A DNA stretch of 64,000 nucleotides, taken from positions 2,294,001-2,358,000 of the forward strand of contig OZ287067.1 in assembly GCA_965645245.1 (NCBI GenBank). Reading direction: 5' to 3'. This DNA comes from Massalongia carnosa. Lineage: Eukaryota. Below the pieces are notes generated by a model that was given only the letters and a program-made list of their open reading frames with translations, was not told the DNA's origin and did not search any database. The stretch's first letter is position 1; each line of letters opens with the position of its first letter. Below are positions 7,101 through 58,050 of the stretch, in pieces. Both the position numbers and the translations under genes were made by a program.

Positions 7101-7534
7101 AACGACATACAGACGCATGGCAGACCTCTTGGAAATCATATCAGAACCTCACATCTACGCCTACTCCAGCACAAGCAGCCCCACTCACAAAAACACGCAT
7201 CAAATTACACGAAACCCTAGCCAAAGCAGAAAGCGCTCTATCAATTCAGATACGCTCAGAAAAGATAGGTCTAGCCGACTTCCTATTTAGACGTCGCGTT
7301 TCCGACGTCTTGACACCGAAGTGTCCATGTGGCTGGCCAAAACAAACCGCGAAACATGTAATCATGTTTTGCAAACTCAACAGTAACAGACGTTCAATGT
7401 TACGCTCCATAAGAACAAATAATTATAGACTCATTACTGACTCATCCAGAGCGATGAATCTAGTTACCGCTTGGTTAATGAAGACCGGCTTACTAACCCA
7501 GGTCTCACTGGCATCACAGCATTTATATCATTGA
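4176..7534 (+). pseudogene. LINE ORF2 (APE endonuclease, reverse transcriptase, C-terminal zinc finger) with one frameshift near 5572
   Basis: IAIQEPW and LLGDFNLHH endonuclease motifs; PQGSP and GFVDD RT motifs; CPCG..TAKHVIMFC. Copy 1 reads GACGGATAGCC where copy 2 reads GACGGAATAGCC (1-nt deletion). Confidence 0.9.
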
Positions 7535-10368: not shown

Positions 10369-13035
10369 ACCCTTTTGGAATGATGAATGCAGTGTGATCA
10401 CGAAAGAAACTCGTAGGCTCAGACGTGTCTGGTCCAATTCCAGAGACATTTCTGATTGGATAACATACACAAAATCCAATCACAGAAAACAAAAAATCAT
10501 TCAAAAGGCTAAAAGACTGTCGTTCCGCAAGGAAATAGAAAAAGCCACCGAATCGCCTACTGGTCTCTGGCGACTAGCCAAATGGGCGAAAGACAAAAGT
10601 GACCAGACAAGAGAAATTCCCAAAATGCCCAATCTCGTTCGAGACGACCAAGTAGCAGAGACGTTCGAGGAGAAATCGGACATGCTAAAACAGAAATTCT
10701 TTCCACCCGCCCCTCCGGCCGACCTCAGCGACATAGAGGGTTCATTTTACCCCAGCCCGCCACAATGTCCAATGATCATAACCAAACTAGAGGTGATGGA
10801 AGCCATACGCCGACTCAAGCCCGATACGGCCCCGGGTCCGGACGGAATAGCCAACAGAATTGTAAAGGAATGCTCGGAAAAGCTAATCGAATTACTCACC
10901 CCACTGTTTCAAGCATATGTAGAACAAGCATATCATCCTCGTGCATTCAAAACCGCCAACACAATCACGCTCAAGAAAACAGGCAAGGATGACTATTCGG
11001 CCCCGAACGCCTATCGACCCATAGCACTCCTAAACACGCTTGGAAAAGTAATGGAATCCATCATGTCACAAAAAATAACCCATCTAGCGGAAACCCACCG
11101 ACTCCTGCCCGACACCCAGATGGGCGCCAGACGAGAAAGATCAACCGAATCTGCACTAGAATGTTGACTGAACAATTTTATACAGTGTGGGGCCAAGGCA
11201 CAGACAAAGTAGCCACATTATTGAGCATGGACGTAGCAGGAGCCTATGACACAGTGACACATCGAAGACTGATTCACAATCTTCGCAAAAGGAAAATCCC
11301 AAAATGGATCACTGACTGGGTGAACAGTTTTCTGAATGAAAGAAGCACTACCCTGGCGATTCACAGCCGAGTCACGGGCATATTCGATGTAAAAACCGGA
11401 ATCCCACAAGGCTCCCCTATTTCTCCTATTCTTTATCTGTTCTACAATGCAGACCTACTAGACATATGTGAAAGACCAGGCAGCAACACGAGTGCTCTAG
11501 GCTTCGTAGATGACATCAATGTGCTAGCATACGGAAAAAGCACCGAAGAAAATTGCAAGACGCTAGAGGTAATTCACAAAAAATGTGAAAAATGGGCAAG
11601 TCGACATGGTTCAGTCTTCGCTCCGAAGAAATACAAATTGATACATCTGTCAAGAAATCCGAAGAAATTCAACATGTTCACTGTTATTCAAATAGGAAAT
11701 AACATCATAAAACCAAAGACAGACATCAGAATTCTAGGACTTCAAATCGATTCAAAATTGAAATGGGGTGCTCACACAAGGAAAATCCAGGAAAAAATGA
11801 CAAAACAATCCAGGGCATTGACAAAAATATCCACCTCCACATGGGGCGCCACTCTTCTAAAGGCACGCCAGGTTTACACCGCCGTAGTCCGGCCGGCCAT
11901 GACGTACGGCTCCACCATTTGGCACATGCCAAAAGAAATTCAAAAATCAAACGTCATCTCAAACAAACTGGCTGTCATACAAAACAAATGTCTAAGAAAC
12001 ATAGCCGGAGCCTTCAAAGCAACGCCCATAGCTGTACTAGAAGCAGAGACATTTATAGCCTCAATTGACATACATTTAGATCAACTACAGGCCCAGACCA
12101 GACAACGCCTGTGTCGAAATGGTCAAAAGAGTTTCATCACAAATGCATGCAACAAAATAGCCAATAAACTTCGAGGTCGGGCAGGACGCAAGAGGGCCCC
12201 AGTCATCACTCCAGGAACGCTGAAATACGCCTGGGCCAAGAGAATCACATCGGAGGCACATAACCTTCCAACACCGACACCAAATCCACCATGGGCCGAA
12301 CCCCCCCCCCGAATCTCGCCCGAGAAATAGGGGAGGCACGCGCCGCTCATAACAAAATAACTGCTCAAATAAAAAACCTACACACATTTGCATGGCAGGC
12401 CTCGTGGAGATCATATCAGGAACGCACACCCGTTCCCACCCCGGCACAATCAGGTTCACTCTCCAAAAAACGCATCAAATTGCACGAAACTCTAGCCAAA
12501 GCGGAGAGCGCGCTAGCCATTCAGATACGCTCAGAAAAGATAGGCCTAGCCGCCTTCCTACATAGACACCGAGTCCCAGACGTCTCGTCCCCGAACTGCT
12601 CATGTGGCTGGCACAAACAGACTGCAAAACATGATCACATGTTTTGCAAACTCAACGACAACAGAAAAACTCTGCTAAATACGATAGGCACAAACAACTA
12701 TCGATTAATCACTGAGTCATCTAAAGCAATGAAATTAGTCACAAAGTGGCTAATGAAGACAGGTTTGTTGTCACAATTTTCGCTGACAGCACAGCATCTA
12801 TACTGCTAACAGTAGGCATGCTTTGTTTCATTTTTCATACTTGTCTTAGGTCAAAGGTTTTTTCATGGAGCACACGGCTGGGACCCGGAGGGTCCTCGGC
12901 CGGACACAGGATTGCATGGTTTTTCTTCCTCAAAAGGTTTTCCATGTACTATAAAACTAGATAGACTCGCCCGCATGGGCCGGCCTTCGGCCGGTACCAC
13001 ATCGGAATAAGAATCATCATCATCATCATCATCAT
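10369..13035 (+). mobile_element. 5'-truncated LINE, copy 2 (related subfamily of copy 1)
   Basis: Starts mid-ORF2 (homologous to ~5096 of copy 1). RT in three frames (shifts near 11160 and at poly-C 12301-12310). (CAT)n tail. 15-bp TSD CATTTATACAACCAG at 10354-10368 and 13036-13050. Confidence 0.95.
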
Positions 13036-15102: not shown

Positions 15103-18100
15103 TCAACTGTGTAACCATGATTTCAAAGTATTAACAACCGCAAGTGTGTGAGGATGGCTGGCCCCGATCTTTTGGGTACGTAGATTAACAACACTTTCCA
15201 TTAATTCAATAGCTTCATCGTGACGGCCCTCAAGCTTATAGGTGTATGCCAGGTTGGCCATGCTGGTCAGCGTGTCTGGATGCTCCTCTCCCAGCACCCT
15301 CGTGCTCGTCCTCATCACTTGCACGTCCAGCTCCTCGGCCTCTTTCCATCGTCCTTGATTCCAAAATGTCGACGCCAGGTTGGCCATGCTGGTCAGCGTG
15401 GAAGGATGCTCCTCTCCCAGCACCCTCGTGCTCGTCCTCATCACTTGCACCTCCAGCTCCTCGGCCTCTTTCCATCGTCCTTGATTCCAAAATGTCGATG
15501 CCAGGTTGGCCATGCTGGTCAGCGTGTCTGGATGCTCCTCTCCCAGCACCCTCGTGCTCGTTCTCATCACTTGCACCTCCAGCTCTTCGGCCTCTTTCCA
15601 TCGTCCTTGATTCCTGTATGTCGATGCCAGGTTGGCCATGCTGGTCAGCGTGTCTGGATGCTCCTCTCCCAGCACCCTCGTCCTCGTCCTCATCACTTGC
15701 ACGTCCAGCTCCTCGGCCTCTTTCCATCGTCCTTGATTCCTGTATGTCGATGCCAGGTTGGCCATGCTGGTCAGCGTGGAAGGATGCTCCTCTCCCAGCA
15801 CCCTCGTCCTCGTCCTCATCACTTGCACGTCCAGCTCCTCGGCCTCTTTCCATCGTCCTTGATTCCTGTATGTCGATGCCAGGTTGGCCATGCTGGTCAG
15901 CGTGTCTGGATGCTCCTCTCCCAGTACCCTCGTCCTCGTCCTTATCACTTGCACGTCCAGCTCCTCGGCCTCTTTCCATCGTCCTTGATTCCAAAATGTC
16001 GATGCCAGGTTGGCCATGCTGGTCAGCGTGGAAGGATGCTCCTCTCCCAGCACCCTCGTGCTCGTCCTCATCACTTGCACGTCCAGCTCCTCGGCCTCTT
16101 TCCATCGTCCTTGATTCCTGTATGTCGATGCCAGGTTGGCCATGCTGGTCAGCGTGGAAGGATGCTCCTCTCCCAGCACCCTCGTGCTCGTCCTCATCAC
16201 TTGCACGTCCAGCTCCTCGGCCTCTTTCCATCGTCCTTGATTCCTGTATGTCGATGCCAGGTTGGCCATGCTGGTCAGCGTGGAAGGATGCTCCTCTCCC
16301 AGCACCCTCGTGCTCGTTCTCATCACTTGCACCTCCAGCTCTTCGGCCTCTTTCCATCGTCCTTGATTCCTGTATGTCGATGCCAGGTTGGCCATGCTGG
16401 TCAGCGTGGAAGGATGCTCCTCTCCCAGCACCCTCGTCCTCGTCCTCATCACTTGCACCTCCAGCTCCTCGGCCTCTTTCCATCGTCCTTGATTCCTAAA
16501 TGTCGATGCTAGTAAGCCAAGACTGTTAAGTGTGTCTCTATTTTCTATATCCAGTAATTCTTTCCTAATCTTTATAGCTTCTTGAATCCTAATCTCTGCT
16601 ATTGCATATTTGCCTTGAGCCAAAGCATACCACGCGCTATTATGAAGAATTCCTGCTTGTTGGAGTCGGCAATGCTGAGAAAGGTACTTGTACTTCAGAA
16701 TAATCTCTGCATGTGGTCCAAGAGCTTCACAAATCTTCCAATTGCTATGTTCTCCATTTGGAAACTGGTCTGCCAGTAAACTGAGCACCCCCTCCTTTTG
16801 TTTTTCCATCTGCTCATGCATTTCGAGCCACTTTCTAGTCGCAAGCTGTACAAGCCGATGCATCTCAAAACTATTCTTTTCTTTTTCCTCGACTATAAGT
16901 GAGAATTCAATCAGCGTTCCAATCGAATCTTCGAAGTCTATCGACGACCCGCTGTTGCTTTGATAAAAGAGAAATCCCGGAATGCCTTGTCGATCAAGCA
17001 AGCACATACAAGACAGAAGATCAGCTGCCGCTGTATTCTGATCTTTGATCTGATCAAATGAAATCTGCCATGTTGTCACAACAGAATTAGGAACGTCGGG
17101 ATCCCTTCGTAGATCTCCACCATCTTTGCTCAAGAGAGATATTTGATTGGATTCATTATGGCGGAAAAGTTCTAGATAACCAGAGATTGTCATTCTTGGA
17201 GCCTTGATAGCAATGTAAGCGGACGCTTGAGTAATAGCGAGCGGTATATATTCAAGAACTTTAATCAACTCGCTCTTATCTCTTTGATTGGATTGATCAT
17301 TGGGTAATTTCTTTGCAAGTAACGTATTGGTATCTTCTTCTCCCATTGCACTAATTCTAAAGACACGATTATCTTTGCCTGCAAGACGAATTGCTGTATT
17401 TTTATCTCTTGATGTTATTAAGATCAAGCTCTTTGCGTTTGAAGACAGATAACATGACAAAGATGATATCTCTCCACCTTCTCGAGGCACCTGAGCGGTA
17501 CTTGGATTAAAAAAAATGCTTGTATCGTCGGCATTATCGAGAATCATCAACCAGTCTCTGCTATCATCAGACCCCAGCCACCGGGAGACTAAACCTAATA
17601 TATCGATTTTGGGATCCTCAACTCCTGATAACTTGGCTGTAATTGCAATCTCACGATAACTTTGTTCAAAACGAGCAGCATTACTAGCGTGCACCCATAA
17701 CAGCGAAACTGAAGGAGTACTCAGCCTCAGTCGATATGCATACTCAATCGCGATTTGCGACTTCCTACTCGAGATTAGAGAATCGCAGAATATTCGAGGT
17801 CAATTATTTCATACCCAATACCACCCAAGCCAACTAGAGCTACTCGACGGGTAGATCGCGATTTCGAAAAGCTCTCATCAATCATTTTGATTATATCTTC
17901 ACGTCCAACAAAGTCTTCATCTCGTTCGAACGGCATCACCGTTGTGACTCGTATCTTCACCGATCCTTGACGCTTGAAGTCAGTCATATCAGATAACAGG
18001 GACTTTGCGGGTCATCGCTTGTACCGTCATAATTTCGACGAACCGTTGAGGAGGCATCCATGGTCATTCCTTCAATTACCTTACGAACATTTTGAAAATT

Positions 18101-21892: not shown

Positions 21893-23829
21893 ATCGTGCC
21901 AAAACACTAAACCCCAACCGAGTCAGGGTCTAGTGCCCGACGGTCTACTGACGCATACAGTCTACTGACGCACTTTTCCCATTTTCACTACCATTTCTGC
22001 TACAAATCGAGGACAACAACGGTTATGCAGAAACTGATTGATTATGACGCTGGTAAAATAGCTTCGCTTGTCTGGGTATCGATCTGGCGATTCTTTTATA
22101 CCTTTTGTCCAGGGCAATCTGCTTCTTTTCAGCAGCTAGTGTGGCACGTTCATAGGCCAGTCTGGTCTTTTCCACCTCGTTCTGACAACGTTTCGAGGTT
22201 TTGGCCCGTACATCTCCTACAGTTATGACCCCTCCCTTCTGGGCGACCTTACCATCCAATTTTCTACGGGCCGCCTTCGCGATGGACTGTTGTTGACTGG
22301 CTCGAAGGTCCCGCTTAATAATCTGACGTGCATGCGCATTGGAAATAGAGCCCTTCACAAATCGATTCACATGACAATCCCATTCATTGTCCAGCACGTT
22401 GTATTTCTTCAAACTCATTCGAAGGTGTAAGCCATATTCAACCACCTCTTTAGTCGTACGGGGCGTTCTGGCGAGCAGAGGGGCTGACAAAGGTGGGGGC
22501 GGGGTAGCAGGTCTCCGAGTTTGAATTTCCTCCAGCTTTCGAATTACCACATTGGGGTTATAAGGCACCAGACCCGTGTTTCTGAATGACGATAATATGG
22601 TAGATGAGGTGAATGTTTGATTTCGCATGCGCTGAAAAATGGACAAAAAATCCAGTTTGTCGAAATCTGCCCCTCCGAGTCGCACCATCTCGTCAATGCC
22701 TTCGGAATGATAATGTTTGAACGGCTGAAAACATCCTACATCCAATGGCTGAGTGAGATGTGTTGAATGAGGAGGCAAACGAAACAATTCAATGTGATTT
22801 CGTTTGGCATATGTAAAAAACTCATATGTCATATGAGATCCATACCCGTCCATGATCAACATACGCCAGGCCCCTACCTGACCCTTTCGACTGTGTTTAT
22901 CGAAATGTTTCAACCAATCAATAGCCAAATCATCATTGGAATAGCCGGTAGGACTAGTAGTCAACAAAACATCGTCATTCAGATCGTTTTGTTGTGTCCA
23001 CTTTTCGAGAATCAAAACCCCCGCTATAATCACCATGGGGGGAATGTTTCGCCCCCCAGCACTAATACACTCACACGAGGTGACATATTCTCTATTATCT
23101 GGATCTGTCAATAGCAAGGGCTTTCTGGAGTGAGTTGATATAACCCAATGAGCCCTGTCACAGCCAATTCGAAAGCCCATTTCATCCATGTTCCAAACGT
23201 CCTCGTCCGCTATTCCCCGCGTCTTTCGCGCAGTTCGATATACTTCAAAATACTCGAGCCTGTCCTTTGCATTGTGCGCGTGTTTTCGCTCAGCGGCCAG
23301 AGGTTTGTGTTTTCGCTTGAAAAATTGAGGATGACGATTGAGGAAACGTTTGGTCCAGGCCTCGCTGACGTGAGGGGGGGGGGGTGGAGGCGTCTAAATG
23401 AGCTTCTCTTAGTAGATAATTAGTAGCCCCCCGAACCATTGAAAACCTGGCTGATTGTTCGGCTTGATCGAGCATCACAATATATTCACAAAGGGCCAAT
23501 TCTTGTTCATCAGATAAGGCCTTGTTGGGGCCAGATCGACCGATGCGCGAACCCCCTCCAGCAAGTCGTCTTTGAAGCGTACGAATGTCGACATCGAAAT
23601 CAAATGGCTACTGCGCGTATACTTCGAAATTCACCCGTGTTCCACGCGTTTATAGCATCGACAATTTGATCCTCCTTATTAGAATATGAGTTAGGCATGG
23701 TGGTGGTAGATGAACGACGTGGTGAAAATGGTAGTGAAAATGGGAAAAGTGCGTCAGTAGACTGTATGCGTCAGTAGACCGTCGGGCACTAGACCCTGAC
23801 TCGGTTGGGGTTTAGTGTTTTGGCACGAT
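21893..23829 (-). mobile_element. pogo/Fot1-like (Tc1-mariner superfamily, DDE_1) DNA transposon A
   Basis: Perfect 104-bp TIRs (21893-21996 and 23726-23829) flanked by TA at 21891-21892 and 23830-23831. Confidence 0.95.
22023..23698 (-). pseudogene. pogo/Fot1 transposase with frameshifted N-terminus
   Basis: NMDEMGFRIG, LIMDGYGSH and STHLTQPLDVGCF motifs in ORF 22023..23189. The N-terminal HTH region from ATG 23698 is split over frames, including at a poly-G run near 23373-23384. Confidence 0.88.
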
Positions 23830-24038
23830 TACGGAGTGCAGAGCAATCTGTTCCTTTTATGTTGGCACGTTGGTCACCTCTGCTAAGCGAGATGATAATA
23901 GTTTATCCGAGCCTCTATGCGATTAGATTAGATCTGATATTATCTAATCTATCGGCTAGGCCACAGCGGGTGTCAAAAGTTTTTACCTAATGAGGGTAGG
24001 ATTTTTAAGCGATAATCCCCTTCCTCCCCTAATCAACC

Positions 24039-25268
24039 ATGGCACCATCTACTCCACCACCACAGGCCAAAAAATCCCCTCATGCTGATACCATCAGAAA
24101 AACCTGCTTTTTCATGCTTTTGATCATCGGCCGGAATGTCATCATCAAAGATGTCTGCGAGCAGGAGAGCATCAAGCTCGATCGAGGAAAATATTGGCTG
24201 AAGCAACGCCAGCGTCTTGAAGACGTCGCCTATCGACGACGTTCTCGTAGCGGTCGACCTAAAAAAGTGAGCATTTAGTTGATAAATCAAATGCTGAATT
24301 CACATACAAATAGCGTTCGCGATCAGCCGTACACCGTACAATTGGAGCACTTTCATATAGATGCAACGCAACGTACACTGCAAAGAGGATTCAGTGCTCG
24401 CAAACCTCGTGCTGCTCGATTTAAAAAAGCGAAGGTGAAAACGCTCAGTCAGAAAAACGAGCGAATACGAGTTCTATACGGGAAAGAGCATGAAAATCAT
24501 ACTATTGAGAATTTCTGGCAGTACGTTCATTTCACGGATGAGGCTCATTTCGACCCGGATCAAACGTACCAAGAGCGAGTTCTTCGAGAGGAAGGCACTA
24601 GATACGAGTCAGAAAACATGCAAAAGATGCCGGACATGAAGGGAGTAAAACTGCATTTGGCCGCTTCTATTTCGTGGCATCATAAAGGGCCGCTGACGTT
24701 TTACAATGACGAGCACGACGCGCCTGAAATTCAGGTTCACAAGCCCAGAAAACCACACAAGTCGAAGTATGAAACGGAGCATGATCATCGTCAGCGAATA
24801 GCTGAATGGGAGGCATCTCTACCTCACGATTTAGAAATTAAATCAAAAGGCAATAGCATGACTCAAGCTTACTTTACGGAGCGTCTGCTTCCCGGCTATA
24901 TGACTGAAATTCATGAATGTCGTGTTTTTCATGATCGATTTTGCATCTTTCAAGAAGATAACGATCCTAGTCACGGCACACGATCTACAGACAATATCGT
25001 ACGTAGAATTAAGGCAGCTAGCTGGATTGAAACGTTGAATCATCCTCCGCAATCCCCTGATCTCAATCCAACGGAAGGGGTATGGAATATTCTGAAACAG
25101 CGAGTTAGACGGCGACGGTGCAGCAATGTGAGAGAGTTAAAACGGGTGATTCTAGATGAATGGAACAAAATATCTATAGATGAAACGGGCCCGAATTAAG
25201 GAGATGCCTGATCGATGTAAGAGATTAATAGCGACGGAGGGCAAAGCAATAAAATCCGATCTATGGTA
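24039..25268 (+). pseudogene. Tc1-like DDE_3 transposase with in-frame stop (24276-24278) and frameshift near 25185
   Basis: FTDEAHF, FQEDNDPSHG and HPPQSPDLNPTEGVW motifs. The C-terminus RARIKEMPDRCKRLIATEGKAIKSDLW lies in a shifted frame. Confidence 0.88.
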
Positions 25269-27812
25269 ATCGTCGGCTCGCTTAGCTCCGTGGATCCGAC
25301 TAAAATGCGAAAGCATTTTAGTCGGGGAAAGCGGTGCATCCCGGAAAGCGGTGCATCCCGGAAAGCGGTGCATCCCGGAAAGCGGTGCATCCAGCCAAAA
25401 TCATCAAATTTTCATCTTTTTCACCTTTTACCCTCAATCATCTGAATAACTAGCTTGATTATTGACGATTTAATCACCTCATATTGATAAGTATAGCCTT
25501 CCCAGCATTTATTCCTAAAATAACTAGTTATTTCATCGGATTGTCGCATATTCAGCTTTTCTATACGTCCTCAATCATCCTTTTTATCCATCATTCTTAA
25601 CCCACTCCATGGATAGTAACGCCCCCATTCTCAATCCCATGGAGGAAGCGAAGCAATTTCTGAAGACAAATCCCAAAGAAACCAAGATGACTGCATCCAG
25701 ACTTTTCAACGTCAACGTTAAAACGTTGACTTCTTCCATTCGTCGTTGTTCGGGAGTGAAAAATGGAGGACAAAATCAGATATTGAGAGATCATGAAACA
25801 AAGGCTATCAATGGTTTTATTCAATCTTTGTTGGTGCATGGAATTCCACCTACGCATCAAATCGTTTTTAATGCCATTGTAAGCTTGAAAAAAGCTCATA
25901 ATCCCCTCGATGTAGGGCCGTCAAGACGATGGTTTCGGGATTGGTGGAAGCGTAGCAATTTGCATAAAATCAAGACAAAACCATTGTCCATGATCCGATT
26001 TGAAGCCGCTCAGGAATCGGATGTGACCAGATGGTTTGCTGATTATAGGCATGCATTGAAAACACTGAATATTCGAAAAAGACGAAATATTCTGAATTTT
26101 GATGAAGCTGGCTTCCGCATTGGGTGCATGAGGGGACAGGAAATTCTTGTTCCCATGGAAATTAAACAATTCTACGCGGTCAGCCCGGAAAACCGTAGAT
26201 CGGCGACGATTATCGAGACAATCAATGCTGCCGGCGACTATCCCCCCCCTCCGATGGTCATCATACAAGGTCATGACATCATGGCCATATGGTTTTCGGA
26301 TGATCTGCCACAGGGCACGCATATCGTGCCTTCGGACAGTGGATTTACATCTGATAAGATAGCAGTTGAATATCTGAAACATCTTATCAAGAATTCAGAT
26401 GCAGGACCGAATGCGGATTGGAAATTGTTGCTTATGGATAATCACGGCAGTCATATTACTCCTGAATTTGTTGCTTTGGCCAATGAAAATCACATTCGTC
26501 CTTATCCACTAATTCCGCATTTAACCCACTGTATGCAGCCATTGGATGTGGGTGTATTTCAACCCTATAAGCATTGGCATAATGTGGCTATTCAAGAGAC
26601 TATATCGGAGTCATTTATTGAGTATTCCCTGACGCAATTTCTGAAGGATTTGGTCAAAATCAGGAATAATACCTTCAACCCATCCACTATTCGACATGCC
26701 TTTGAAAAGTCGGGCATGTGGCCTGTTAATCCAAAAGCATGCATTCAACAGCTGAAAACATTCAATCCCAACAATCCAAACAATCTGACTGAGATTCTGA
26801 CCGAGACGAATAATGATAATCAGCTCACATTACCCCCCCTACCTCGTCAAATCCAACCAAGGGAAATAGCCGACATAGAATATGGATTGGATCATCAATG
26901 GGGACCAAAAATTCAGGAATCTATGCAATGGAGTGACCCCATTCGGGCTGAGGAATTTGACTCATTCGTTATCAATGCAAAAGAAGTTATTTCGAACTCG
27001 ATTCTCAAGGAAACGGAGCTGAAAATGTGGCAACAGACACGAATGCAACAGTTAAACAGTAGAAAATTTTCTCGCAAACGACTGAGACCTGAATCAGGAA
27101 AATTGGGACTGACTAAGGAAGATGCGGAGCATGCCTTAACCATGAAGCTACAACACGAAAAAAAGGCTGAAAAGAAACGAGTGGACAATAAGTTTATGAA
27201 GATATGGAGAATGGAAAGAGACGAAATTCACGTCAAGGGAATGGCTGCTCGAAAAGCAGAAAGGGATCGAGTCAAACGATTAAAAGAAATGACCAAAACC
27301 CTCAATCCCATACCAATTGAGTTGTATGAAGCAATTTCTGACCCCGAGGCCTTATGGAAAGCGACGAATGAGGTGTGGATAGCTGAGGAAGCGAAGAAAG
27401 AAGCCAGAAAAAATCCACGTGTCAATGCTACGATTGATGAGGAAGAAACCGCGATTGTAGTAGATGAAGAATCATGGGTGCAGAGAGATTTCGGGGGCTC
27501 CATCGAGATGCAAAGTGATTTCGTATCTTTCATGGATGAAGAGGATGAGGAGAATGCGGGGTATGGGGGGAACCGGAAGAATCGGGGGGATCGAAGGGAT
27601 CAGGGGGGTCGAGGGGATGATTTTGATGATGGTTATGATGATGACACTGTTTTTCAAGCTTTGTATGACGTTAGCTAATGATTAACCCAGATGATTGAGG
27701 GTAAAAGGTGAAAAAGATGAAAATTTGATGATTTTGGCTGGATGCACCGCTTTCCCCGACTAAAATGCTTTCGCATTTTAGTCGGATCCACGGAGCTAAG
27801 CGAGCCGACGAT
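25269..27812 (+). mobile_element. pogo/Fot1-like DNA transposon B, apparently intact
   Basis: TIRs 25269-25444 and 27688-27812, identical apart from three extra 17-bp units on the left; TA TSD at 25267-25268 and 27813-27814. Confidence 0.95.
25609..27678 (+). CDS. pogo/Fot1 DDE_1 transposase (689 aa, uninterrupted)
   Basis: NFDEAGFRIG, LLMDNHGSH and THCMQPLDVGVF catalytic motifs; N-terminal HTH; acidic tail. Confidence 0.93.
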   Translation: MDSNAPILNPMEEAKQFLKTNPKETKMTASRLFNVNVKTLTSSIRRCSGVKNGGQNQILRDHETKAINGFIQSLLVHGIPPTHQIVFNAIVSLKKAHNPLDVGPSRRWFRDWWKRSNLHKIKTKPLSMIRFEAAQESDVTRWFADYRHALKTLNIRKRRNILNFDEAGFRIGCMRGQEILVPMEIKQFYAVSPENRRSATIIETINAAGDYPPPPMVIIQGHDIMAIWFSDDLPQGTHIVPSDSGFTSDKIAVEYLKHLIKNSDAGPNADWKLLLMDNHGSHITPEFVALANENHIRPYPLIPHLTHCMQPLDVGVFQPYKHWHNVAIQETISESFIEYSLTQFLKDLVKIRNNTFNPSTIRHAFEKSGMWPVNPKACIQQLKTFNPNNPNNLTEILTETNNDNQLTLPPLPRQIQPREIADIEYGLDHQWGPKIQESMQWSDPIRAEEFDSFVINAKEVISNSILKETELKMWQQTRMQQLNSRKFSRKRLRPESGKLGLTKEDAEHALTMKLQHEKKAEKKRVDNKFMKIWRMERDEIHVKGMAARKAERDRVKRLKEMTKTLNPIPIELYEAISDPEALWKATNEVWIAEEAKKEARKNPRVNATIDEEETAIVVDEESWVQRDFGGSIEMQSDFVSFMDEEDEENAGYGGNRKNRGDRRDQGGRGDDFDDGYDDDTVFQALYDVS

Positions 27813-48647: not shown

Positions 48648-50502
48648 ATGACAAAATCCGAATACAAAATGGATGATTCACCTGATACAGTTGGCTCATA
48701 TGTGGCACCAAGGAACATCTTTGCTGATAAAGGAAGAGACTTTATGCGAATCTTTACAACCAAGTATGGTTTATGCTCTCATATTTTAGGTCTGACAAGC
48801 TAATTTAATTTTGCGCAGACAAGGCCTCGTTGGGAACTACGACTATGCATTTCTATTCACACCCAACCTTCCCTTCATGAAAAAATCGAGGCGGGCTCCC
48901 CCATTTTTTGGCCTCGATGATCGTATGCCTGTTGTTTTGGCTCTCCTACTAGGCTTTCAGCACGCATTGTCCATGCTGGCTGGGGTCATTACGCCTCCTA
49001 TTATCATCGCAGGCTCAGGCGGAGCAAACCTTAGCGGAGACGACTCGCAGTATCTTGTCTCCACATCTTTGATTGTGTGCGGTATTTTATCCTCGATTCA
49101 GATTACAAGGTTTCACATCTTCAAATCTCCTTACTACATCGGCACAGGCCTGATCTCCGTAGTGGGCACTTCGTTCGCTATCATTCCCATTGCTACAGGC
49201 GCCTTCGCTCAAATGTACGCAACGGAGTTCTGCCCCACCGACGCCAATGGTCTAAAGCTACCATGTCCCCGTGGCTACGGAGCCATTCTCGGCACCGCCT
49301 GTTGCTGCGCTCTTCTTGAAATTGCACTTTCCTTCACCAAGCCTAGTCTGCTGAAGAAGATATTTCCCCCACTTGTCACCGGCCCTACAGTTATGCTCAT
49401 CGGTCTCTCGCTCATTAAAAGTGGATTTCAAGGCTGGGCGGGCGGCTCCGGTAGCCCGGGATGCATAGATCGTCCGACCAACGGACCATTCACGGTTTGC
49501 CCTATGGTCGGCGCTCCTCACGCGCTTCCTTGGGGAAGCGCTGAGTATATCGGCCTCGGGTTCTCTGTCTTCGCAACCATCATCATGTGCGAGCGCTTCG
49601 GCAGCCCAATCATGAAGTCCTGCGCCGTGGTGCTTGGCCTGCTGGTAGGCTGCATCATAGCTGGTGCGACAGGGTACTTCTCCTCCGCCAGTATCACCAC
49701 CGCGCCCGCCGTCTCCTTCATCTGGGTTCGAACGTTCCCGCTCAGCGTCTACGGCCCCATCGTCCTCCCCCTGCTAGCCGTCTACATCGTACTTATGATG
49801 GAAGCCATCGGCGATATTACAGCCACATGCGACGTCTCGCGCCTTCCTGTCTCCGGGCCCCTCTTCGACTCACGCATTCAAGGCGGCGTGCTAGCCGATG
49901 GCCTCAACGGTCTCCTCGCCGCCCTCGCCACCATCACACCCATGTCAACCTTCGCACAGAACAACGGAGTCATTGCTCTGACCCGGTGCGCCAACCGTGC
50001 GGCCGGCTACGCCGCTTGTGCCTTCCTGCTCCTCATGGGTGTCTTCGCCAAATTCGCCGCCGCGCTCGTGGCCATTCCAGCGCCCGTCTTAGGCGGCATG
50101 ACGACCTTTCTCTTCGCCGCGGTCGCGGCGTCGGGCCTGCGCATTATCGCCTCGGTGCAGTTCACGCGGCGCAATCGGTTCGTGCTGACGGCTGCGTTGG
50201 CGCTCGGGTTTGGCGCCACGCTCGTGCCGAACTGGTTCGGCTTCGTGTTTCCCGACGCGGGCGGGAATCGGGCCAAGCAGGGTTTCTTCAACGCCACTGT
50301 GCTAGTCATGGAGACGGGATTTGCGGTCACGGCGTTTGCGGCTATTTTCTTGAACTTGATGTTGGAGGAAGAGGTGGTGGAAGAGGAGGAGGAGGAGGAG
50401 GAGGGGGTTGAGACTACTAGGGCTAATGAAGCGGACGCTGTAGATGCTAGAGAAGAGTGGGCGGGCATGAGTCGGGGAGTGGGGAATGATGGAAAGGTTT
50501 GA
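48648..50502 (+). CDS. Uric acid/xanthine permease (NAT/NCS2 family, UapA/UapC-like), 2 exons (intron 48764-48818)
   Basis: LGFQHALSM, NAT signature FAQNNGVIALTRCANR, VLGGMTTFLF and many TM helices. Confidence 0.95.
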
Positions 50503-51424
50503 GAAAAGGGGGAGGGGGGTTATCACCAAAGCACATGAGAGTGAGGGAAGCGTAAAACGGACGTGTGGTTCCGATACGAGGGTTTAAGCCTGACAGCTTT
50601 ATTGAGTGTTGAGCGGGATTTTCCAAGCACGGTGTTAATCCATCAACTCGTCTTTCCCCGCCCATTTCTCCAAGCCTTCCGTCTGTCTTCCCCCGCTAGC
50701 CGGATGTCCATCATGCGTATCAACCTTCCATTTTATATTTTAATTTTTTTAAAGACGAAAAATCCGGCGAAACGATTAGTTTTCATCGATCCATCATTGA
50801 TTGATTGGATCTGTCGACTTGGTTTCCCTTTCTTTATCCGTGGAGACCGAGAAGAGGTACCTACAGTTCGAATATTTGGTTCATCACAAATGACGACTTG
50901 ACTTGCGAGGATGGACAAATGAATAAATATATCAACTCTCTACCTACTATCTCTTCTCTTATACTCTCCCACCCATCACTCCCTCCTCTAGCGAACGCTC
51001 ACCTTCATTCCTTCCTTCCTCCCTCACTATATATATATATACAGCATCTGTAATCTAATCGATCGCCCCATGTCCAACGTCCAGGACCCTTTCTAGGGCT
51101 AGGTAGGTAGGTACATCATTCATAAACACAGATAGATGACTAAAGACAGGTGAGGGAGGGGGGGGTGGATTTGTGGGCTTCGGGGGGTTGGGATGTGCGC
51201 TGCTGTTGATTAGATGGGGTGTTGTGGGAAAATGGGGAATGTTTTCGAGTGGCTAAATGCATGGGTTTTTGTCTACCAAGGTTCGGTTGGTTGACGGAGA
51301 GATTGAAACGAAACTTTGGAGAGGAGCGATTATATATCAATGATGCATACTCACCCCTTCCTCCCTTCCTTTCCAAGCATTCCATTCTCCCCAATCCCCT
51401 TTCCGAGCATTATGAAAACCCCCC

Positions 51425-52590
51425 TTACGGATACCCCCGAAACGTCTTCTCAACCGCCGAACTCCCAATTGAACCGCTCCGTCGCCTAAGCCCTCAGCCG
51501 GCTAAAATCCCGACACGTGTGGCGCGATCGGAATCAATGTAATTCTGGCCCAGGCTAGCCTAGTAGCGCGTGGGGACGGGCGTGATGTCGCCGTAACATT
51601 GGATCATCTACCGAGGATGAGCGATGAAGTGGTCTGGGGTTTCGGGAAACCTTCAGGATGGGATAGTTGTTTCTAAAAACAGAGGCTAGGGGTGCGAAAT
51701 GGAGAATGAGAGAAAAGAGTGACTGACCGCGATGTATGTCGTCTTGAGCGCCTTCATGCGGAGGATATACATCCGGATAGAATGACTGGCGAAGGTGGTT
51801 CTGGTGTTGAAACGCATGTTAGTTGGGCTTCTGGAGTGATGCTGACCCTCAGCACGATTCTGGGGCTGGCTTCTGGCTATATGGCGTTTCGACCTTACCA
51901 AAAAGTGGAGCGTGTGAAACATGTCAATTCTAGATTGGCCTATTTTTAGTAAAACGTTTTACCCTAGATCCTAAGGACCAAAGAGTAGAGTTATGTTTAC
52001 CCAGCCAGATACCCGCCCCATTGCTCGTCTTCGTAGTCGACATACTCAGGGCCCCAGGCATCAAAGACTTCTTTCTCGGTAAGAAGGAAATAACGCCCTA
52101 TGGTGAAGGTTCAGATATAGAAACATCCTAGAAACGATTTCAGCTGGCATGCTGTCAGTTTATCCCATGCCGTGTCAACCTCTGGACTTAGCTGCCCTAC
52201 ATATCGTGGTGTGCCTGGGTGCTGGGGGTGGTTTTCTTCTCCGTCGGCTGAAAACGACGGACTTCCACCGAATTGGATTTGATGGATGGATATCTCGGAA
52301 CGTGCAGCAGCTATGTAGAAAGATGCAATAGTCAGGGGACATCATTTTTGTGATGCTAGTTTTGGCATGGAATCTATACTTAGATCGATTAGAAAACCGG
52401 TCTCGAAGCTGCCCAAGCTTTTGCTTGACCTGGGATCGAGCGACAGAAACAGTGTCCAGCACGCAAAAACGATAGTCGAGATGATCCAGGACAGTCGAGA
52501 CATAGTAGCTCGATCATTTAATGCGTCGGTCGAGCCACCAAATTCTCCTTTCTCATCAGCTAGCTGCTCTTCAAGGTGGGAATATGTCAA
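51425..52590 (-). pseudogene. UstYa/DUF3328-family oxidase pseudogene 1, multi-exon
   Basis: Spliced by hand: TM WIISTIVFACWTLFL, GSFETGFLIDL|..RYVGQLSPEVDTAWDKL|RYFLLTEKE..WGGYLAG|IDMFHTLHFL|NHLRQSFYPDVY..IHR|DHFIAHPR*MIQCYGDITPVPTRY*..NYIDSDR/HTCRDF. Stops, a frameshift and no ATG at the apparent start. Confidence 0.85.
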
Positions 52591-53777
52591 AGAAGCGTGA
52601 TAGGTCTTTTATACCGAGCAGGCTCGTCAAAGACAGATATGTAGGAAAGCTTCTTTTACGCGCCGGAGAGAGCGCCAAATATCCACATCTCGCGGATTTG
52701 AAGCGCGCTGAAAAGAATAAACCCGCCACGGAAAGCAATGAGCTCTTTTATAACCCAACTTGGAATCGCTCGCAAGACAACAAACATGTCGCGGACAAAG
52801 CCTGAGCAGGGCATGGTCGCGAATAGGCGTCTGAGGTATGCCCGTTCTTTCGTCGTCTCCTAGCTTCGAAGCTAGTCTATATAGATATTGACACTTAGTA
52901 GTAAGTCCTGGTCGTCTGAAAGGCTTCTGGGATATCAGGGTATCGCCACGACCACAGCGAACCTTAAGAAATCCATGTGCCTCAATTTTTGAACTTTCAA
53001 TGCCAGACGGGTGAGATGTCGATCGTAGGATCCCGAAGCCAGCAGCCAGGACGGCGAATTTTAAGACTAGGCAATAGTAGTTTCAATGAACTGGGTCATG
53101 GCTATTGTTACTGTTTCATTCGCATGATAACCATGCTATTATCCGCTCTCCATGTTCTTAGGATCCTAAGTCGTACTGAACCATTGATCTTTTATGCACA
53201 CATCTTAACGCTATGAAACTAGTCGCACTCTAGGGCCGGCGCGTTGACCTGTACGACAAGTAATTAGCAGAGAGCTAGGAGGCTTATCAGAAATGTCACA
53301 TCACTTTTGGATGACGTTCAAGAGTCTTAAAAATTCCAAAAAGCCTTTGTTCTCGCCATTTCCACTATCCTTAACCTTTTCACCTTGGGAGATTACGAAC
53401 GTAGCGAGTTGACAAGGGATGAAGCCTACAAATCGTCATTGTACGAAAAGACTAGTGGAGCTTCATTAAAGACTGAAAGGAAAAAGCCCGAGAGGATATT
53501 CATTATGACCAACGTAATTACGCGCATCTAACTTTCTTGGACTAGTTAACTCGCTGTTGAAAAGAAAAGCCTTGCCAGACAGATGCGAACCTAGGCCTAA
53601 CCTCATAAGCCAGAAACCCTAAATACAGTAAGACGATTGACCGAGCCGTATGGCGGAGGAGGTTCAGATGTGGTGATGTTCAAATCGAGGAACTTCCATC
53701 ATTTGCTTTTAGCTAGTATCCCTTCATTCCACGGTAAAGTCCACAACATCCTGCTCAAGCGGGTCGCAATAAACATC

Positions 53778-54891
53778 ATGATCTCCTCTAGGCAGAGGCT
53801 ACCGTTCTGGCGGCATTACCTCTTATCAGCTAGGAAGCTCCCCGTCCAGAACACTGATCTAGAGAACCTGCTCTCAAAATCAATTATAATTTTCAAAAAG
53901 AGAGATCCGCAATCTCCCGGATTGTGGAAATCTCCCGGATTGTGGAAATCATTCCGCAACCAGAATCCAACAAAGATACTCTATCTGTATGCTAGTGCTC
54001 TTCATCATGATAGCAATGCTATCAAGATGGATATTCACGAACATTGGAACTCGCAAGTATCTCGGTAGATCCGTCCTTCCTCCGAGTAGGTCGGCCGGCG
54101 CTTGAAATCATCTAGGGGTAAAAGTACTGGTATTGTGGCGCGTCGCAGCAAGCCTCGAGAGTTTATCCTTAACGCAGACGATGTGTGCATGAAACCGGCT
54201 TTTCCTGCGTCTGATGCGGCTTGGTCATCTCTGCTACCGTCCGGGGACGGTTTTGGCGTTCTTGAAGACCCGGAACAGCTACGATCTCCCTCTAAGTCTG
54301 CTTCATGAGCATAAAAGGAATCTATATGGTATCGCTTGGACCCATTAATTCCAGCGTCCGGTAGGTTCAGCCTCCCATCGGGATAGTATCCGAAGCTCAG
54401 GTCACCCTAGCAAATGCTACGCTCAGGATTCTGAAAGCTCGAAACGAATAAAGCAAACCGGCTCCTACATAGCCAAGCGGCGATCTATTAAGGTGGACCT
54501 ATATCATCTTGCCCACTACCTTGCCTACCTGCGGCAAACGAATTTGTGCAACATGAACACCACGGTTGAATATCCAACAACTCACACGAAGATAATCTCA
54601 AGGACCACATCAGCGGATAGGACATATCTCACCGATGCAAGTGTGCGTAGTTGTCCATTCTCGCCTTGCGCAAATACTCCTCTGACCACAAACATCTACC
54701 AAGATTGGGACGTTACATATGAGCTTACAAAAGACCCTTCTCCCACTCAAGGTGTTGGGAAGGAGAAATCGTCTGTCTTGAATGACATAACCAATAGCGG
54801 GCGTATGGGTATCCCAATTTTATCCCATCAGCGTCATCAAACAGATGGCGAGTACACAATTAAGGGAGACCCGCGTGGTGGCACTACTTGA
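53778..54891 (+). pseudogene. UstYa/DUF3328-family oxidase pseudogene 2
   Basis: TM segment ICMLVLFIMIAML, SDAAWSSLLPSGDGF, YGIAWTH*FQRP (degenerate HQxHCL), HLAHYLAYLRQTNLCNMNTTVEYP, SG*DISHRCK, DWD. Several frameshifts and stops. Confidence 0.75.
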
Positions 54892-54925
54892 TAGAGCTGG
54901 TCTGTCTAGACCAGTCGGAGATGTA

Positions 54926-56290
54926 TCACTCAAATGATATGCAAGTCGGAGTCTTGTGCCACGTTATGTCTTCGTATCGCTCCATGTCAGGATTTACCCC
55001 TTGTGGGAGGCTTGATAAAATGTGGAGCCGGCCCAAAATAAATTGAATTACTGACTGTATGAGGGCCGAGGTAGGATGATCATCTTGACACTCTGTGTAA
55101 ACAGTGATAACGTTATCCCAATGTTTCTGCAAATTCAATGGCTGAAGTAGGATTAGATAATCATCGGTAGACCCCTCTATCCTTTAGGCCTATGGTTAGC
55201 TAAACGTCGAAAAGTATGCGACCCCTAAAAGAAGTGGAACCTACCGATAACCAATACGTAGTACTTTGTAAGTTACTTTATAAAACTGGCCGAAGCATCT
55301 AGAAATTCAAACTTTGCATTGTTGAGAAGGAGTTTGTTGATCCATGTGTATTGCAGTGGCAAGAAGGTTCAGGTTGTTGATGGCTTTCAAGCGCTTCCAT
55401 GATGTCCTCTTGCACGAATTATGGGTCAGCGACATCTGATCGAGCGGCGACGCCATAGAATCTGATTGCTTGGTTATGCTATACTTAAATACCCTTCAGG
55501 CCATCACTGCTAGGCATAGACGTGCGTTCTTTCCTGGAGATGCCGCCATTGAATGGAATCAACGATCCTTTACTCCGTACGGAATACTCTGTACTCTACA
55601 CATGAGCTCCTGGGCGATTCAGTCTGAAAACTTGGTGAGAATTCTCCTTGGGGAACTAGTGGCCCACGCCAGGTTCTTTGTCTTCTTCGTTCGCTAATTT
55701 GAGCCGAGGCGTTTGTGGCTTGAAACTGTTGGGAAGCACTAAAGATAATAGCGTTGTAGAGACTTTGTACTGTCGTCGATCTCCCGTCCCACGATTTCCG
55801 AGTAATAGGTATTGAAGTGTGCAGTGAATGCTGCAGGGTTTGAGGTTCTTCGTACTTCGTATTTTGCGGAGCATCGTGAATTTGTTGAACTTCGACGTAG
55901 GTTATTAGCTCCATCCCCGCGGACGATGATGAAGCACCGCTATGCTCGGTCTTTTGTATCATTCCAAACTCTTTCCGGAACAATCCGTTCGCGGGAGTTG
56001 TCATGCTGAGTGAGATGCATGAGGAATTACATAAGACCCCTCATTGGAGGATTGAAGAGGAAGAGGAATGCAGGTACCACGCAGGGATAAGGCTTGTCCA
56101 ATAAAACTATCGAATTTATTCCTATCCCGGTAGAAGATTTGTTGGGCCAATCCCAATAAGGTCCACATAAACCCCAACGGATTTTATGCTTCAACAAAAC
56201 ATCATCCTGATGCTGCAAAAAGCTGCTTTCAAGGTACTCTGTAGACCCACGGCTGGAGAACATTGATATCAATGGCAACTTCCAGGCAGC
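54926..56290 (-). pseudogene. Unidentified decayed gene
   Basis: Protein-like segments broken by stops and shifts (EVAIDINVLQPWVYRVP*KQLF; NPLGFMWTLLGLAQQIFYRD; YEVRRTSNPAAFTAHFNTYYSEIVG; IPFNGGISRKE|FYGVAARSDVADP*FVQEDIMEAL; HILSSLPQGVNPDMERYEDITWH). Family not recognised. Confidence 0.45.
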
Positions 56291-56552
56291 AGATAGACGC
56301 TTAAGCTTTCCTCATCCTCCTCCACTCTTTTGACCTCGTCCTAGAAACCATAGATCTTCTCGACCCTTTATATCGCGCACAAATCGGCAAAATTTCCGCC
56401 CCGCCTGGTGGTTTGGTCTAGCTCTAGCGCATCTAAACCGCTCTTCATATTCGAGCTCACTCTCACCTCTTATCTCTTCCATCTTCCTCCATCAACCTTC
56501 GTCCGCTCATTCACCTATCTTCTCTCCTCTCATACGATTTACTCAGCAAGCC

Positions 56553-58050
56553 ATGCCCTCACACCAACCTGCTGCTGGGTACCTGGCCGTGCAGCCCCAG
56601 TTTCTCTCCTCACAGCCTTCACCGTTGGCTAAAACCTCGGAGCCAAACCGAAGCAGATCCTATGACCCAAAGAAGCCCCATATAACCGAGTCTCCCATCA
56701 CCAGGTCAAATTGGTACAAGCATGTTAACTGGCTTAATGTATATCTCATTGTGGGAATTCCTTTGTATGGGTGTGTCCAGGCTTTCTGGGTGCCATTGCA
56801 CTGGAGAACCGCTTTGTTTGCTGTAGTCTACTATTTCATGACCGGTTTGGGGATCACAGCAGGTAATTTGCACGGTTTTTACTTGCCCTTATCAACCGCT
56901 AACTCTCTTTCAAGGTTATCATCGACTATGGGCCCATACATCTTACTCTGCGACTTTCCCTCTTCGAGTCTTTTTGGCTGCCATGGGTGGTGGAGCCGTA
57001 GAAGGATCGGTGAGATGGTGGGCTAGAGACCATCGAGCCCATCATCGTTATACCGACACCGAAAAAGATCCCTATTCCGTCCGCAAGGGTCTTTTGTACT
57101 CCCATTTCGGCTGGATGTTGATGAAGCAGAACCCAAAGCGAATCGGCCGAACCGATATCTCGGATCTAAACGAGGATCCGGTTGTCGTGTGGCAGCATCG
57201 AAATTACCTTAAGGTTGTCTTGTTCATGGGCCTCATCTTTCCAAGTGTGATCTGTGGGCTCGCTTGGGGTGACTGGTTTGGCGGCTTAATCTATGGAGGA
57301 ATTCTGCGTATATTCTTTGTTCAGCAAGCTACTTTCTGCGTCAATTCTCTTGCACATTGGCTGGGAGATCAGCCATTCGATGACCGCAACTCCCCCCGTG
57401 ATCATATTATTACAGCTCTTGTCACTCTTGGGGAGGGCTATCATAATTTTCATCACGAATTCCCCTCAGACTACCGTAACGCCATCGAATGGCATCAATA
57501 TGATCCAACCAAATGGGCTATCTGCATTTGGAAGCAACTTGGACTTGCTTTTGACCTCAAGCAATTCAAGCAGAATGAGATCGAAAAAGGCCGTGTCCAA
57601 CAAATGCAGAAAAAGCTTGACCAGAAGCGTTCGAAGCTGGACTGGGGTGTTCCTCTTGATAGTCTTCCTGTTATAGAATGGGAAGATTTTCAAGACCAAG
57701 CCAAGAACGGCCGAGGGCTTGTTGCTGTGGCTGGTGTTGTGCACGATGTCACTGAATTCATCAAATCGCATCCTGGGGGAAAAGCTATGATCAACTCTGG
57801 CATCGGGAAGGATGCTACCGCAATGTTCAATGGTGGCGTCTATATGCACTCCAATGCTGCTCACAATCTGCTTTCGACGATGCGAGTAGGCGTTATCCGA
57901 GGGGGTTGTGAGGTAGAGATCTGGAAGCGAGCGCAAAAGGAGAACAAGGACATTCAGTACGCCAAAGACGACCAGGGACAGCGAATCATCAGAGCCGGCA
58001 ACCAAGTTACAAAGATTTCTGAGCCTGTCGCCACCGCTGGAGCCGCATAG
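56553..58050 (+). CDS. ole1: Delta-9 acyl-CoA desaturase with C-terminal cytochrome b5, 2 exons (intron 56863-56914)
   Basis: His boxes [14 protein letters not shown] and YHNFHH; b5 motif HPGG. Confidence 0.97.

Follow-up and report, generated by a model that had tools for sequence, protein, structure and literature searches.

Proteins of the DUF3328/UstYa family, among them CctR, UstYa/UstYb and AprY, combine an N-terminal anchor with DxAW, two HxxH, R..C..D and HxCR motifs, in this order; in CctR, His and Cys substitutions abolished activity. In fungi, the neighbourhoods of precursor genes show a strong enrichment in DUF3328 genes (PMC7329392). In the dikaritin clusters for ustiloxin and phomopsin (ustA, ustQ, ustYa and ustYb), the first ustiloxin intermediate is made by ustQ, ustYa and ustYb together, and three DUF3328 genes (CctO/CctP2/CctR) act in the cyclochlorotine NRPS cluster. 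Among lichens, the RiPP Clan R1 of Parmeliaceae is described as comprising a tyrosinase, an FGE-sulfatase and two DUF3328 genes with an O-methyltransferase between them, and a repeat precursor was not found in it (PMC12048977). The same survey presents lichen RiPP clusters as mostly species-specific singletons. A literature search for DUF3328 pseudogenes and for pseudogenization of lichen clusters, covering few subscription papers, found no locus like the one described here.

In the 64-kb window analysed here, the whole stretch of 64,000 nucleotides from Massalongia carnosa, two distinct DUF3328 genes lie within 5 kb of sequence that may also include a tyrosinase, a gene set resembling that of the dikaritin clusters and, by description, that of Clan R1, in which a repeat precursor is likewise missing. 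Unlike in dikaritin clusters, the interval showed no recognisable remains of a precursor, a methyltransferase, a peptidase or a transporter, nor of the O-methyltransferase or the FGE-sulfatase described for Clan R1. Both DUF3328 genes share the family order of anchor and motifs, a likeness to CctR, UstYa and AprY drawn from motif descriptions, and both differ from the family in being broken: the first (gene 1) carries HxxHF twice, whereas most of motif 1 is gone from the second (gene 2).

The interval, of about 6 kb, is bounded on the left by an intact uric acid-xanthine permease of the UapA/UapC type (48796..50502, plus strand, 48796 being the open-frame start of its main exon; PF00860, E=3.5e-63; PDB 5i6c, E=3.9e-224) and on the right by an intact delta-9 fatty acid desaturase of the ole1/sdeA type (56553..58050, plus strand; PF00487 and PF00173). 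The permease has one match in the whole genome and is thus single-copy, and the desaturase is present as a single full-length copy. Because, in addition, their Aspergillus nidulans counterparts, uapC (AN6730) and sdeA (AN6731), have consecutive locus tags, the interval looks like an insertion; we consider it quite probable that this DNA entered between two ancestrally adjacent core genes, a synteny that is taken from the Aspergillus locus tags and not from the sequence of a close relative. The interval is itself single-copy and has no convincing terminal repeats, which leaves a mobile-element origin unsupported. Repeat-induced point mutation (RIP) was rejected as well, given TpA/ApT ratios of 0.72-0.76 and (CpA+TpG)/(ApC+GpT) ratios of 1.2-1.3, similar to those of the flanking permease. 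An Rfam search returned no family.

The original prediction that core genes enclose two divergent DUF3328 pseudogenes proved right, firmly for gene 1 and, for gene 2, on a signal that is weak but real; a first genome-wide search with PF11807 had given 36 matches that included neither. Gene 1 is read on the minus strand as six exons (52590-52380, 52310-52149, 52097-52001, 51929-51899, 51800-51728 and 51633-51450), a layout shared with an intact paralog at C6:2306.6-2307.7 kb. Of its five introns, the second has a GC donor and the other four are GT..AG. A span of 51425-52590 had been proposed, but the true end of the gene is at 51450, and 51425 is where the frameshifted frame ends. The spliced reading is 45% identical to the intact Sordaria brevicollis protein KAK3400722.1 (P0015), itself a PF11807 member (E=6.7e-38), matches a PF11807 protein with E=8e-66, and scores 97.7 and 153.4 bits on DUF3328 profiles of 16 and 25 sequences, respectively; single exons gave E=0.049 with PF11807. 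When P0015 was aligned to the raw DNA with an automatic spliced aligner, five introns and a frameshift near 51522 were recovered with a score of 392, compared with a best of 67 in 60 shuffles. In a whole-genome tblastn, the same protein matched exon 6 (E=1e-7). No homolog of the N-terminal half was found among 64 candidates, an exact-pattern metagenome scan gave no match, and PDB searches with gene 1 and with P0015 matched no solved structure.

Gene 1 has a TTG at 52590 in place of the expected ATG, the next ATG being at 52503, followed by a hydrophobic segment (52503-52444), the putative anchor, that aligns with the anchors of the homologs and by DxAW at 52176. Its open frame is broken by stops at 51610, 51562 and 51488 and by the frameshift at ~51522. 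Both HxxHC motifs have become HxxHF (the first at 51916-51902, the second spanning intron 5): all four motif histidines and the other two conserved cysteines are kept, and both motif cysteines are Phe. Among the homologs, Cys occupies these two positions in 36 of 38 and 38 of 38 rows, and Phe in none; each change corresponds to a single G-to-T base. That gene 1 is a DUF3328 gene bearing these lesions is, in our judgement, virtually certain.

Gene 2 (53778..54891, plus strand) is far more decayed. Its frames have PF11807 as their sole Pfam hit (E=0.029 and E=0.018), with 14.7-15.3 bits, below the 25-bit cut-off. On the 25-sequence profile it reached 12.4 bits, compared with a best of 4.4 in 2000 shuffles, and its spliced amino-acid score was equalled neither by any of 150 shuffles nor by any of 264 genomic windows; at the codon level, at least 10 of the 264 windows scored above it. 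In the hand-joined reading, the first 49 residues are one base out of frame, and the stretch that scores lies elsewhere. We recognised an 18-bp tandem duplication (53911-53950), a hydrophobic stretch (53977-54036), DxAW at 54213, a ruined motif 1 near 54343-54360 in which one of the H/H/C residues (a His) is kept and a stop has arisen, HxxHY..LRQ..C at 54505-54549 and HxC(K) near 54630-54641. The frame changes at least three times, and two stops lie within the coding pieces. The identity of gene 2 as a DUF3328 relic is highly probable, and it shares almost no detectable similarity with gene 1.

A third dead gene, read on the minus strand at 54926-56290 and put forward as a candidate tailoring enzyme, could be recognised in part. 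At 56296-56048 a degenerate third CuA-histidine motif, PYWDW at 56161 and a downstream P-x-F-x-F-x-F-x-P occur in the correct order, frame and spacing, although the WHR motif has lost its His. This putative type-3 copper tyrosinase fragment (56048..56296, minus strand) ranked first of 1620 tiles, and the joint probability of the flanking motifs around PYWDW is about 1e-4, for a hypothesis chosen after PYWDW had been noticed. The signal derives from C-domain-type paralogs, and a UstQ-type query scored at the null mean on this stretch. Fungal tyrosinases with a C-terminal shielding domain (PF00264 plus PF18132) have the same N-terminal motif trio; in contrast to them, the fragment is without the first ~90 residues, and neither CuB nor the C-terminal domain nor any Pfam hit was detected. 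On this motif evidence, a 5'-truncated tyrosinase fragment of the cytosolic (C-domain) rather than the UstQ type is the somewhat better-supported reading.

For the remainder of the stretch (54926..56047, minus strand), a coding origin was not demonstrated. CuB motifs and a C-terminal domain were not detected, the CuB chain ranking 418 and the C-terminal chain 74 of 1620 tiles; the latter resemblance, suggested by eye, thus failed its test. Tyrosinase tests over the whole region were negative or marginal (scores as good in 4 of 80 shuffles and 12 of 236 windows), and a three-sequence tyrosinase HMM placed the third frame outside the top 25 of 2725 sequences. Over 54926-56290, this frame has 13 stops where 24.4 are expected (P=0.12 for the best of the six) and shows no bias in codon use (P=0.56). 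It had no hit among 1.84 billion proteins, a search made with this one frame, nor in Pfam, PDB or its own genome; the other two minus frames have no paralog in the genome, and the AlphaFold model has a pLDDT of 32.7. A single whole gene at this place therefore gained no backing, and the tailoring role retains some support for the tyrosinase fragment.

The absence of a KR-delimited repeat precursor, already noted from the letters of the window, was borne out by scans with positive controls, which found no repeat precursor or repeat relic in the 64-kb window plus 30 kb of flank. The same scans detected precursors (four KR-type and one ER-delimited) at five of the ~18 other DUF3328 loci of this 52-Mb genome, the remaining 13 having none within the ~10 kb examined. 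With so many other loci, five of them with repeat precursors, a dead DUF3328 pair is ordinary turnover, to be expected in this genome. The spacer between the divergent gene starts (52591..53777) contains no recognisable gene or precursor. A weak similarity at a 63-nt lag (52697-52798; P=0.02, uncorrected, with five regions tested) leaves a precursor relic there unproven, and tblastn of the spacer against five small secreted proteins gave no similarity (best E=0.12).

The best overall explanation, to which we assign a probability of roughly 0.7, is an inserted interval that contains two dead DUF3328 genes and, probably, a piece of a dead tyrosinase gene. By analogy with CctR (PMC12435403) and UstYa/UstYb (PMC6514808), each live DUF3328 protein is predicted to have been anchored in the membrane by a single pass and to have dimerised, the two HxxHC motifs providing a dicopper site on the lumenal side, and would have oxidised a peptide in the secretory pathway. 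The likeliest substrate would be a Kex2-cut repeat precursor resembling the five others in the genome, whose gene may have been deleted, may have decayed beyond recognition or may never have been present here. The three relics are unevenly decayed, the third stretch appearing oldest and gene 1 youngest, which suggests that they were lost step by step or arrived separately. It is plausible that a peptide-tailoring module was lost here, and the chance that the relics once worked as one module falls a little short of even; if they did, RiPP rather than NRPS chemistry is the probable one.

The original prediction went further, taking the relics for a single undescribed cluster that relatives may still have in working form; no intact locus orthologous to this one was seen. 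Loss as a unit of a complete dikaritin cluster, with two DUF3328 genes, a tyrosinase and a Kex2-repeat precursor still intact in related lichen fungi, would fit the divergent pair and tyrosinase fragment in the interval, the joint production of the first ustiloxin intermediate by ustQ, ustYa and ustYb, the composition given for Clan R1, and a metagenome contig (L076) on which a relative of the gene 1 clade lies 1 kb from a tyrosinase. We take the latter to be UstQ-like, unlike the C-domain-type signal found here, and we regard the complete cluster as unlikely: five precursors were detected elsewhere and none here, no methyltransferase relic was recognised between the two genes, the position of this enzyme in Clan R1, the relics have decayed very unevenly, and neither gene 2 nor gene 3 had a counterpart in any of 10 metagenome loci of the wider gene 1 clade (7 of the 10 being under 4 kb). 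The opposite view, that orphan DUF3328 genes and debris arrived at different times in a tolerant intergenic site, never cooperating, and that the tyrosinase-like motifs may be due to chance, is doubtful too, if slightly less so. It draws on the near-absence of similarity between genes 1 and 2, on the 45% identity of gene 1 to the Sordaria protein set beside a barely recognisable gene 2, on the 13 DUF3328 loci that have no repeat precursor nearby and on the lack of a significant coding signal in the third frame; nevertheless, a head-to-head family pair 1.2 kb apart is improbable by chance with ~18 loci in 52 Mb, and the enrichment of DUF3328 near precursor genes noted above also speaks against it. 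That the pair tailored a non-ribosomal peptide or another metabolite, as CctO/CctP2/CctR do for cyclochlorotine, would accord with the missing precursor and with the UniRef name of one gene 1 clade relative, 'Cyclochlorotine biosynthesis protein O', but this name is automatic and not a tested function, and the window ORFs showed neither a frame of NRPS size nor an NRPS domain; we consider it improbable.

The state of gene 1 in other material bears on whether it worked until very recently. A low-depth contig from another study repeats the window allele with zero differences over 51497-51900, so the stops are not assembly errors. In a second natural allele, from run X4, two of the gene 1 stops, the frameshift and two motif substitutions are absent, these five positions having the conserved state; runs X6 and X8 yielded no usable coverage of the interval. 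X4 has at least 10 differences in gene 1; of those listed, 8 lie in exon 6, whereas exons 1-5, for which 5.2 would be expected, have none (the regions were chosen post hoc). Such a pattern leaves room for very recent function, conceivably persisting in X4-type strains at a locus that segregates between near-intact and broken alleles; the product would be a variant enzyme, started at the downstream ATG and spliced at the GC donor, that has four His and Phe for both motif Cys. The parallel Cys-to-Phe changes at paired positions, with the four His and the other two Cys retained, could be read in the same way. However, no listed X4 difference touches the HxxHF bases, the TTG at the start, the donor of intron 2 or the stop that stands in place of the last conserved Trp; CctR lost its activity when its motif Cys were substituted, HxxHF is found in 0 of 38 homologs, and each of the two changes needs just one G-to-T base. 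Recent function, like continued function in X4-type strains, is thus very unlikely, and the X4 version of gene 1 is probably dead as well.

Taken alone, the locus yields no product, precursor or new chemistry, and since neither of the two conserved clans of the lichen survey yielded repeat precursors (PMC12048977), the five intact loci with a precursor and DUF3328 genes elsewhere in this genome are better leads. If a relative held an intact module, it would represent a new dikaritin-type pathway, and if the twin Cys-to-Phe form worked, it would put to the test the need for the motif cysteines throughout DUF3328. The locus is a clear case, in a lichen-associated fungus, of genes for peptide tailoring that came to lie between core genes and decayed there. 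Its two alleles differ in how far they have decayed, and the locus illustrates why lichen RiPP clusters are mostly species-specific.

Two relics of the DUF3328/UstYa family (PF11807), gene 1 (52590-51450, minus strand) and gene 2 (53778-54891, plus strand), lie between an intact UapA/UapC-type permease gene on their left (PF00860; PDB 5i6c, E=3.9e-224) and an intact delta-9 desaturase gene on their right, each present as one copy in the genome (G000; 52 Mb, 25 contigs; window at G000:C1:2294001-2358000). In Aspergillus nidulans, uapC is AN6730 (excerpt of PMC1794588) and sdeA is AN6731 (excerpt of PMC12345192). Since these locus tags are consecutive, they suggest that the permease and desaturase were ancestral neighbours and that the intervening 6 kb was inserted. 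A lichen metagenome contig spanned the 49800-57600 interval in one piece with ~99% identity (71 of 7801 bases substituted), which makes a lichen-forming or lichen-associated ascomycete the probable source of the window. Neither a second copy elsewhere in the genome, a RIP signature nor an Rfam match was found for the interval. The 36986-63687 region of the window holds core genes (Rad51-family, MOSC, CobW, Mob1-family, Cdc73 and a C2H2 regulator resembling CreA/Mig1). Other features of the window are a phosphotransferase-like frame (878-1747), a protein with 42-residue TPR repeats (15103-17799) and, named by eye, LINE-like retroelements (2665-7534 and 10352-12809) and DDE transposase frames (22023-27678).

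Gene 1 is a DUF3328 pseudogene, as the original prediction had proposed. Its six exons are arranged as in the intact paralog on contig C6, and its introns comprise four of the GT..AG type and one starting with GC. On a profile built from 16 DUF3328 proteins of the same genome, the spliced reading with X at the breaks reached 97.7 bits (best of 2000 shuffles, 5.6); a 25-sequence profile gave it 153.4 bits. A protein search with pieces of the last exon gave 14 matches among 269 candidates, all 14 annotated as PF11807; a cluster member of the best protein, Sordaria brevicollis KAK3400722.1 (P0015), was 45% identical to gene 1 over 216 residues (E=8e-66). The identity of gene 1 is independent of our splicing by hand, because an automatic aligner comparing P0015 with the raw DNA itself located the five introns and the frameshift (score 392; 60 shuffles, ≤67), and tblastn over the whole genome matched exon 6 (E=1e-7). 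In a 36-row tree, gene 1 clustered with P0015, the homologous proteins P0008, P0009 and P0014 and the loci L076 and L082 (96/89), in a clade without any own-genome paralog.

The lesions of gene 1 include a frameshift near 51522, three stops (51610, 51562, 51488) and a non-GT donor at intron 2. A TTG stands at the expected start position, and an in-frame ATG is found at 52503, directly before the anchor. Phe replaces the Cys of both HxxHC motifs; no Phe occurs there in any of 38 homolog rows, 36 of which retain the first Cys and all of which retain the second. In CctR, changing the motif His and Cys to Ala abolished activity (excerpt of PMC12435403).

The lesions are real, since X5, a low-depth contig from another study, is identical to the window over 51497-51900. 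A further allele, X4, encodes Asp and Leu in place of the window's Ala and Pro, and Gln and Tyr in place of two stops; it also carries an extra base at the frameshift. X4 is the same as the window at both Phe codons, the donor of intron 2, the start codon and the 51488 stop. Of the 10 listed differences within gene 1, eight fall in the last exon (184 bases) and none in exons 1-5, where 5.2 were expected; these regions were picked post hoc, and the list covers 40 of 76 substitutions (up to 52927) and 12 of 13 indels. The plain reading is that gene 1 was already dead when the alleles diverged and that its decay has been uneven from then on. A bolder and improbable reading, in which X4-type strains have a working HxxHF enzyme, would require four leaky lesions simultaneously.

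Gene 2 is very probably a DUF3328 relic as well. Its features stand in the correct order (hydrophobic stretch, DxAW, a ruined first motif, HxxHY, LRQ..C and HxC(K)), although the frame shifts at least three times along them and is twice broken by a stop; with its first motif ruined and its second reading HxxHY, it shares with gene 1 the loss of the intact motifs of the family. PF11807 was the sole Pfam family matched in its three frames (E=0.029) and likewise in its last open frame (E=0.018), both under the 25-bit cut-off. The joined reading scored 12.4 bits (best of 2000 shuffles, 4.4), and the automatic aligner with an amino-acid profile gave 30.7, equalled by 0/150 shuffles and 0/264 genomic windows. 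The codon-level score lay above 150 shuffles; at least 10 of the 264 genomic windows scored higher, several within intact genes, an outcome that we attribute to codon bias. The similarity between genes 1 and 2 is limited to a 16-residue match, so that they are distant paralogs. X4 has one base fewer in gene 2 at 54274, a frame-change site, and lacks 24 bases of the last intron.

A third decayed gene had been proposed at 54926-56290 (minus strand). As a whole gene it was not confirmed: the frame has 13 stops in ~455 codons where 24.4 would be expected, a scarcity matched by the best of six frames in 11.6% of 1000 shuffles, codon usage is unremarkable, the fold model is meaningless (pLDDT 32.7), and no match was found among 1.84 billion proteins, in Pfam, in PDB or in the own genome. 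The sequence PYWDW at 56161, which we take to be a tyrosinase-type motif, led to a post hoc comparison with three own-genome tyrosinases with PF18132. With the chain of three N-terminal motifs, the stretch ranked first of 1620 tiles at 34.8 bits (second-best tile, 26.1; true tyrosinases, 48-76). The anchor motif was unique among 686,666 positions, and the motifs flanking it gave P=0.0013 upstream and P=0.0031 downstream (joint 2/22,218, post hoc). The whole-length aligner result was weak (equalled by 4/80 shuffles and 12/236 windows), the chains for CuB and the C-terminus came in at ranks 418 and 74 of 1620, the three-sequence HMM placed the frame outside the top 25 of 2725, and the other tyrosinase type, queried with L076, scored at the null mean. 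An intact tyrosinase has ~90 residues before this motif, whereas 256 bases are left here to the desaturase ATG; thus, any tyrosinase gene here would be cut at its 5′ end. We give slightly better than even odds that a tyrosinase fragment lies at 56296-56048; no family match was found for the remainder of the stretch (54926-56047).

Searching 406 kb for repeats delimited by KR brought up four precursors, each adjoining a DUF3328 gene other than genes 1 and 2; the window, as originally noted, and its 30-kb flank had none. Scanning for repeats at the DNA level revealed one more, whose start is signal-like and whose units are ER-delimited, and again none in the permease-desaturase interval. In the spacer between genes 1 and 2, a weak 63-base-lag similarity (52697-52798) and a signal-peptide-like frame without ATG (53325-53520) were not significant.

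The genome contains 36 PF11807 matches grouped into 18 loci, genes 1 and 2 not being among them. All five precursors are on the plus strand. The intact one at G000:C6:2308825-2309499 (L047:6825-7499) has a signal peptide and ~six 20-residue repeats whose core contains QMYG, and is separated by 1.1 kb from the closest paralog of gene 1, an intact DUF3328 gene; a second small membrane protein without Pfam match stands on the opposite side. At G000:C2:2284915-2285697 (L052:6915-7697), an intact precursor with 36-residue repeats rich in W, F and Y is located between or beside a DUF3328 gene and a multicopper oxidase. The precursor exon at G000:C6:1020878-1021321 (L054:7378-7821), with seven 16-residue repeats (core YKYGNYAG), has a DUF3328 gene and an S10 carboxypeptidase nearby, while the intact precursor at G000:C16:1079779-1080411 (L058:6279-6911), with 17-residue repeats, adjoins a DUF3328 gene, an S28 peptidase and a transporter-like frame. 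The ER-delimited precursor at G000:C1:446300-447441 (L057:6800-7941) comprises ~29 copies of a 39-base unit, i.e., a 13-residue repeat ending in YER, not KR, without a Kex2 site; it lies behind a signal-like exon, 1.3 kb from a DUF3328 gene. A ~90-kb region, G000:C8:1916000-2003000 (L041-L046, L069-L072), includes a C-domain tyrosinase, a frame resembling the end of a polyketide synthase and two DUF3328 genes, one with several stops and the other with a degenerate second motif. Three near-identical DUF3328 copies near contig ends (C7:36029, C7:2713482 and C1:3536981) suggest subtelomeric duplication.

Scanning metagenomes with the gene-1 clade reduced 62 pattern matches to 10 loci. At L076, a tyrosinase lies 1 kb downstream (PF00264, E=2.8e-38), and no repeat precursor was found in 16.8 kb of the 27-kb contig; L078 has two tandem DUF3328 genes. 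At L079, L080, L083 and L085, a DUF3328 subclade occupies a conserved spot adjoining a ketoacyl synthase (named by eye), where L080 and L083 also have an oligopeptide transporter. L080 and L085 encode a divergent small secreted protein with a single KR site, possibly a single-core precursor. Counterparts of gene 2 or the third stretch were found in none of the 10 loci, seven of which are under 4 kb.

In the ustiloxin pathway, UstQ, UstYa and UstYb jointly make the first intermediate (excerpt of PMC6514808), and DUF3328 genes are on average 3.09 genes from repeat-precursor genes (excerpt of PMC7329392). According to an excerpt of PMC12048977, lichen genomes carry many RiPP clusters, mostly singletons, and lichen Clan R1 combines a tyrosinase and a methyltransferase with two DUF3328 genes. 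The locus looks like what is left of a peptide-tailoring module of these kinds, but no precursor was found and neither gene has the intact motifs. The relics possibly derive from one former cluster. Of the fossil cluster originally proposed, the two DUF3328 pseudogenes stand; their family is a known one, with many live members in this genome.
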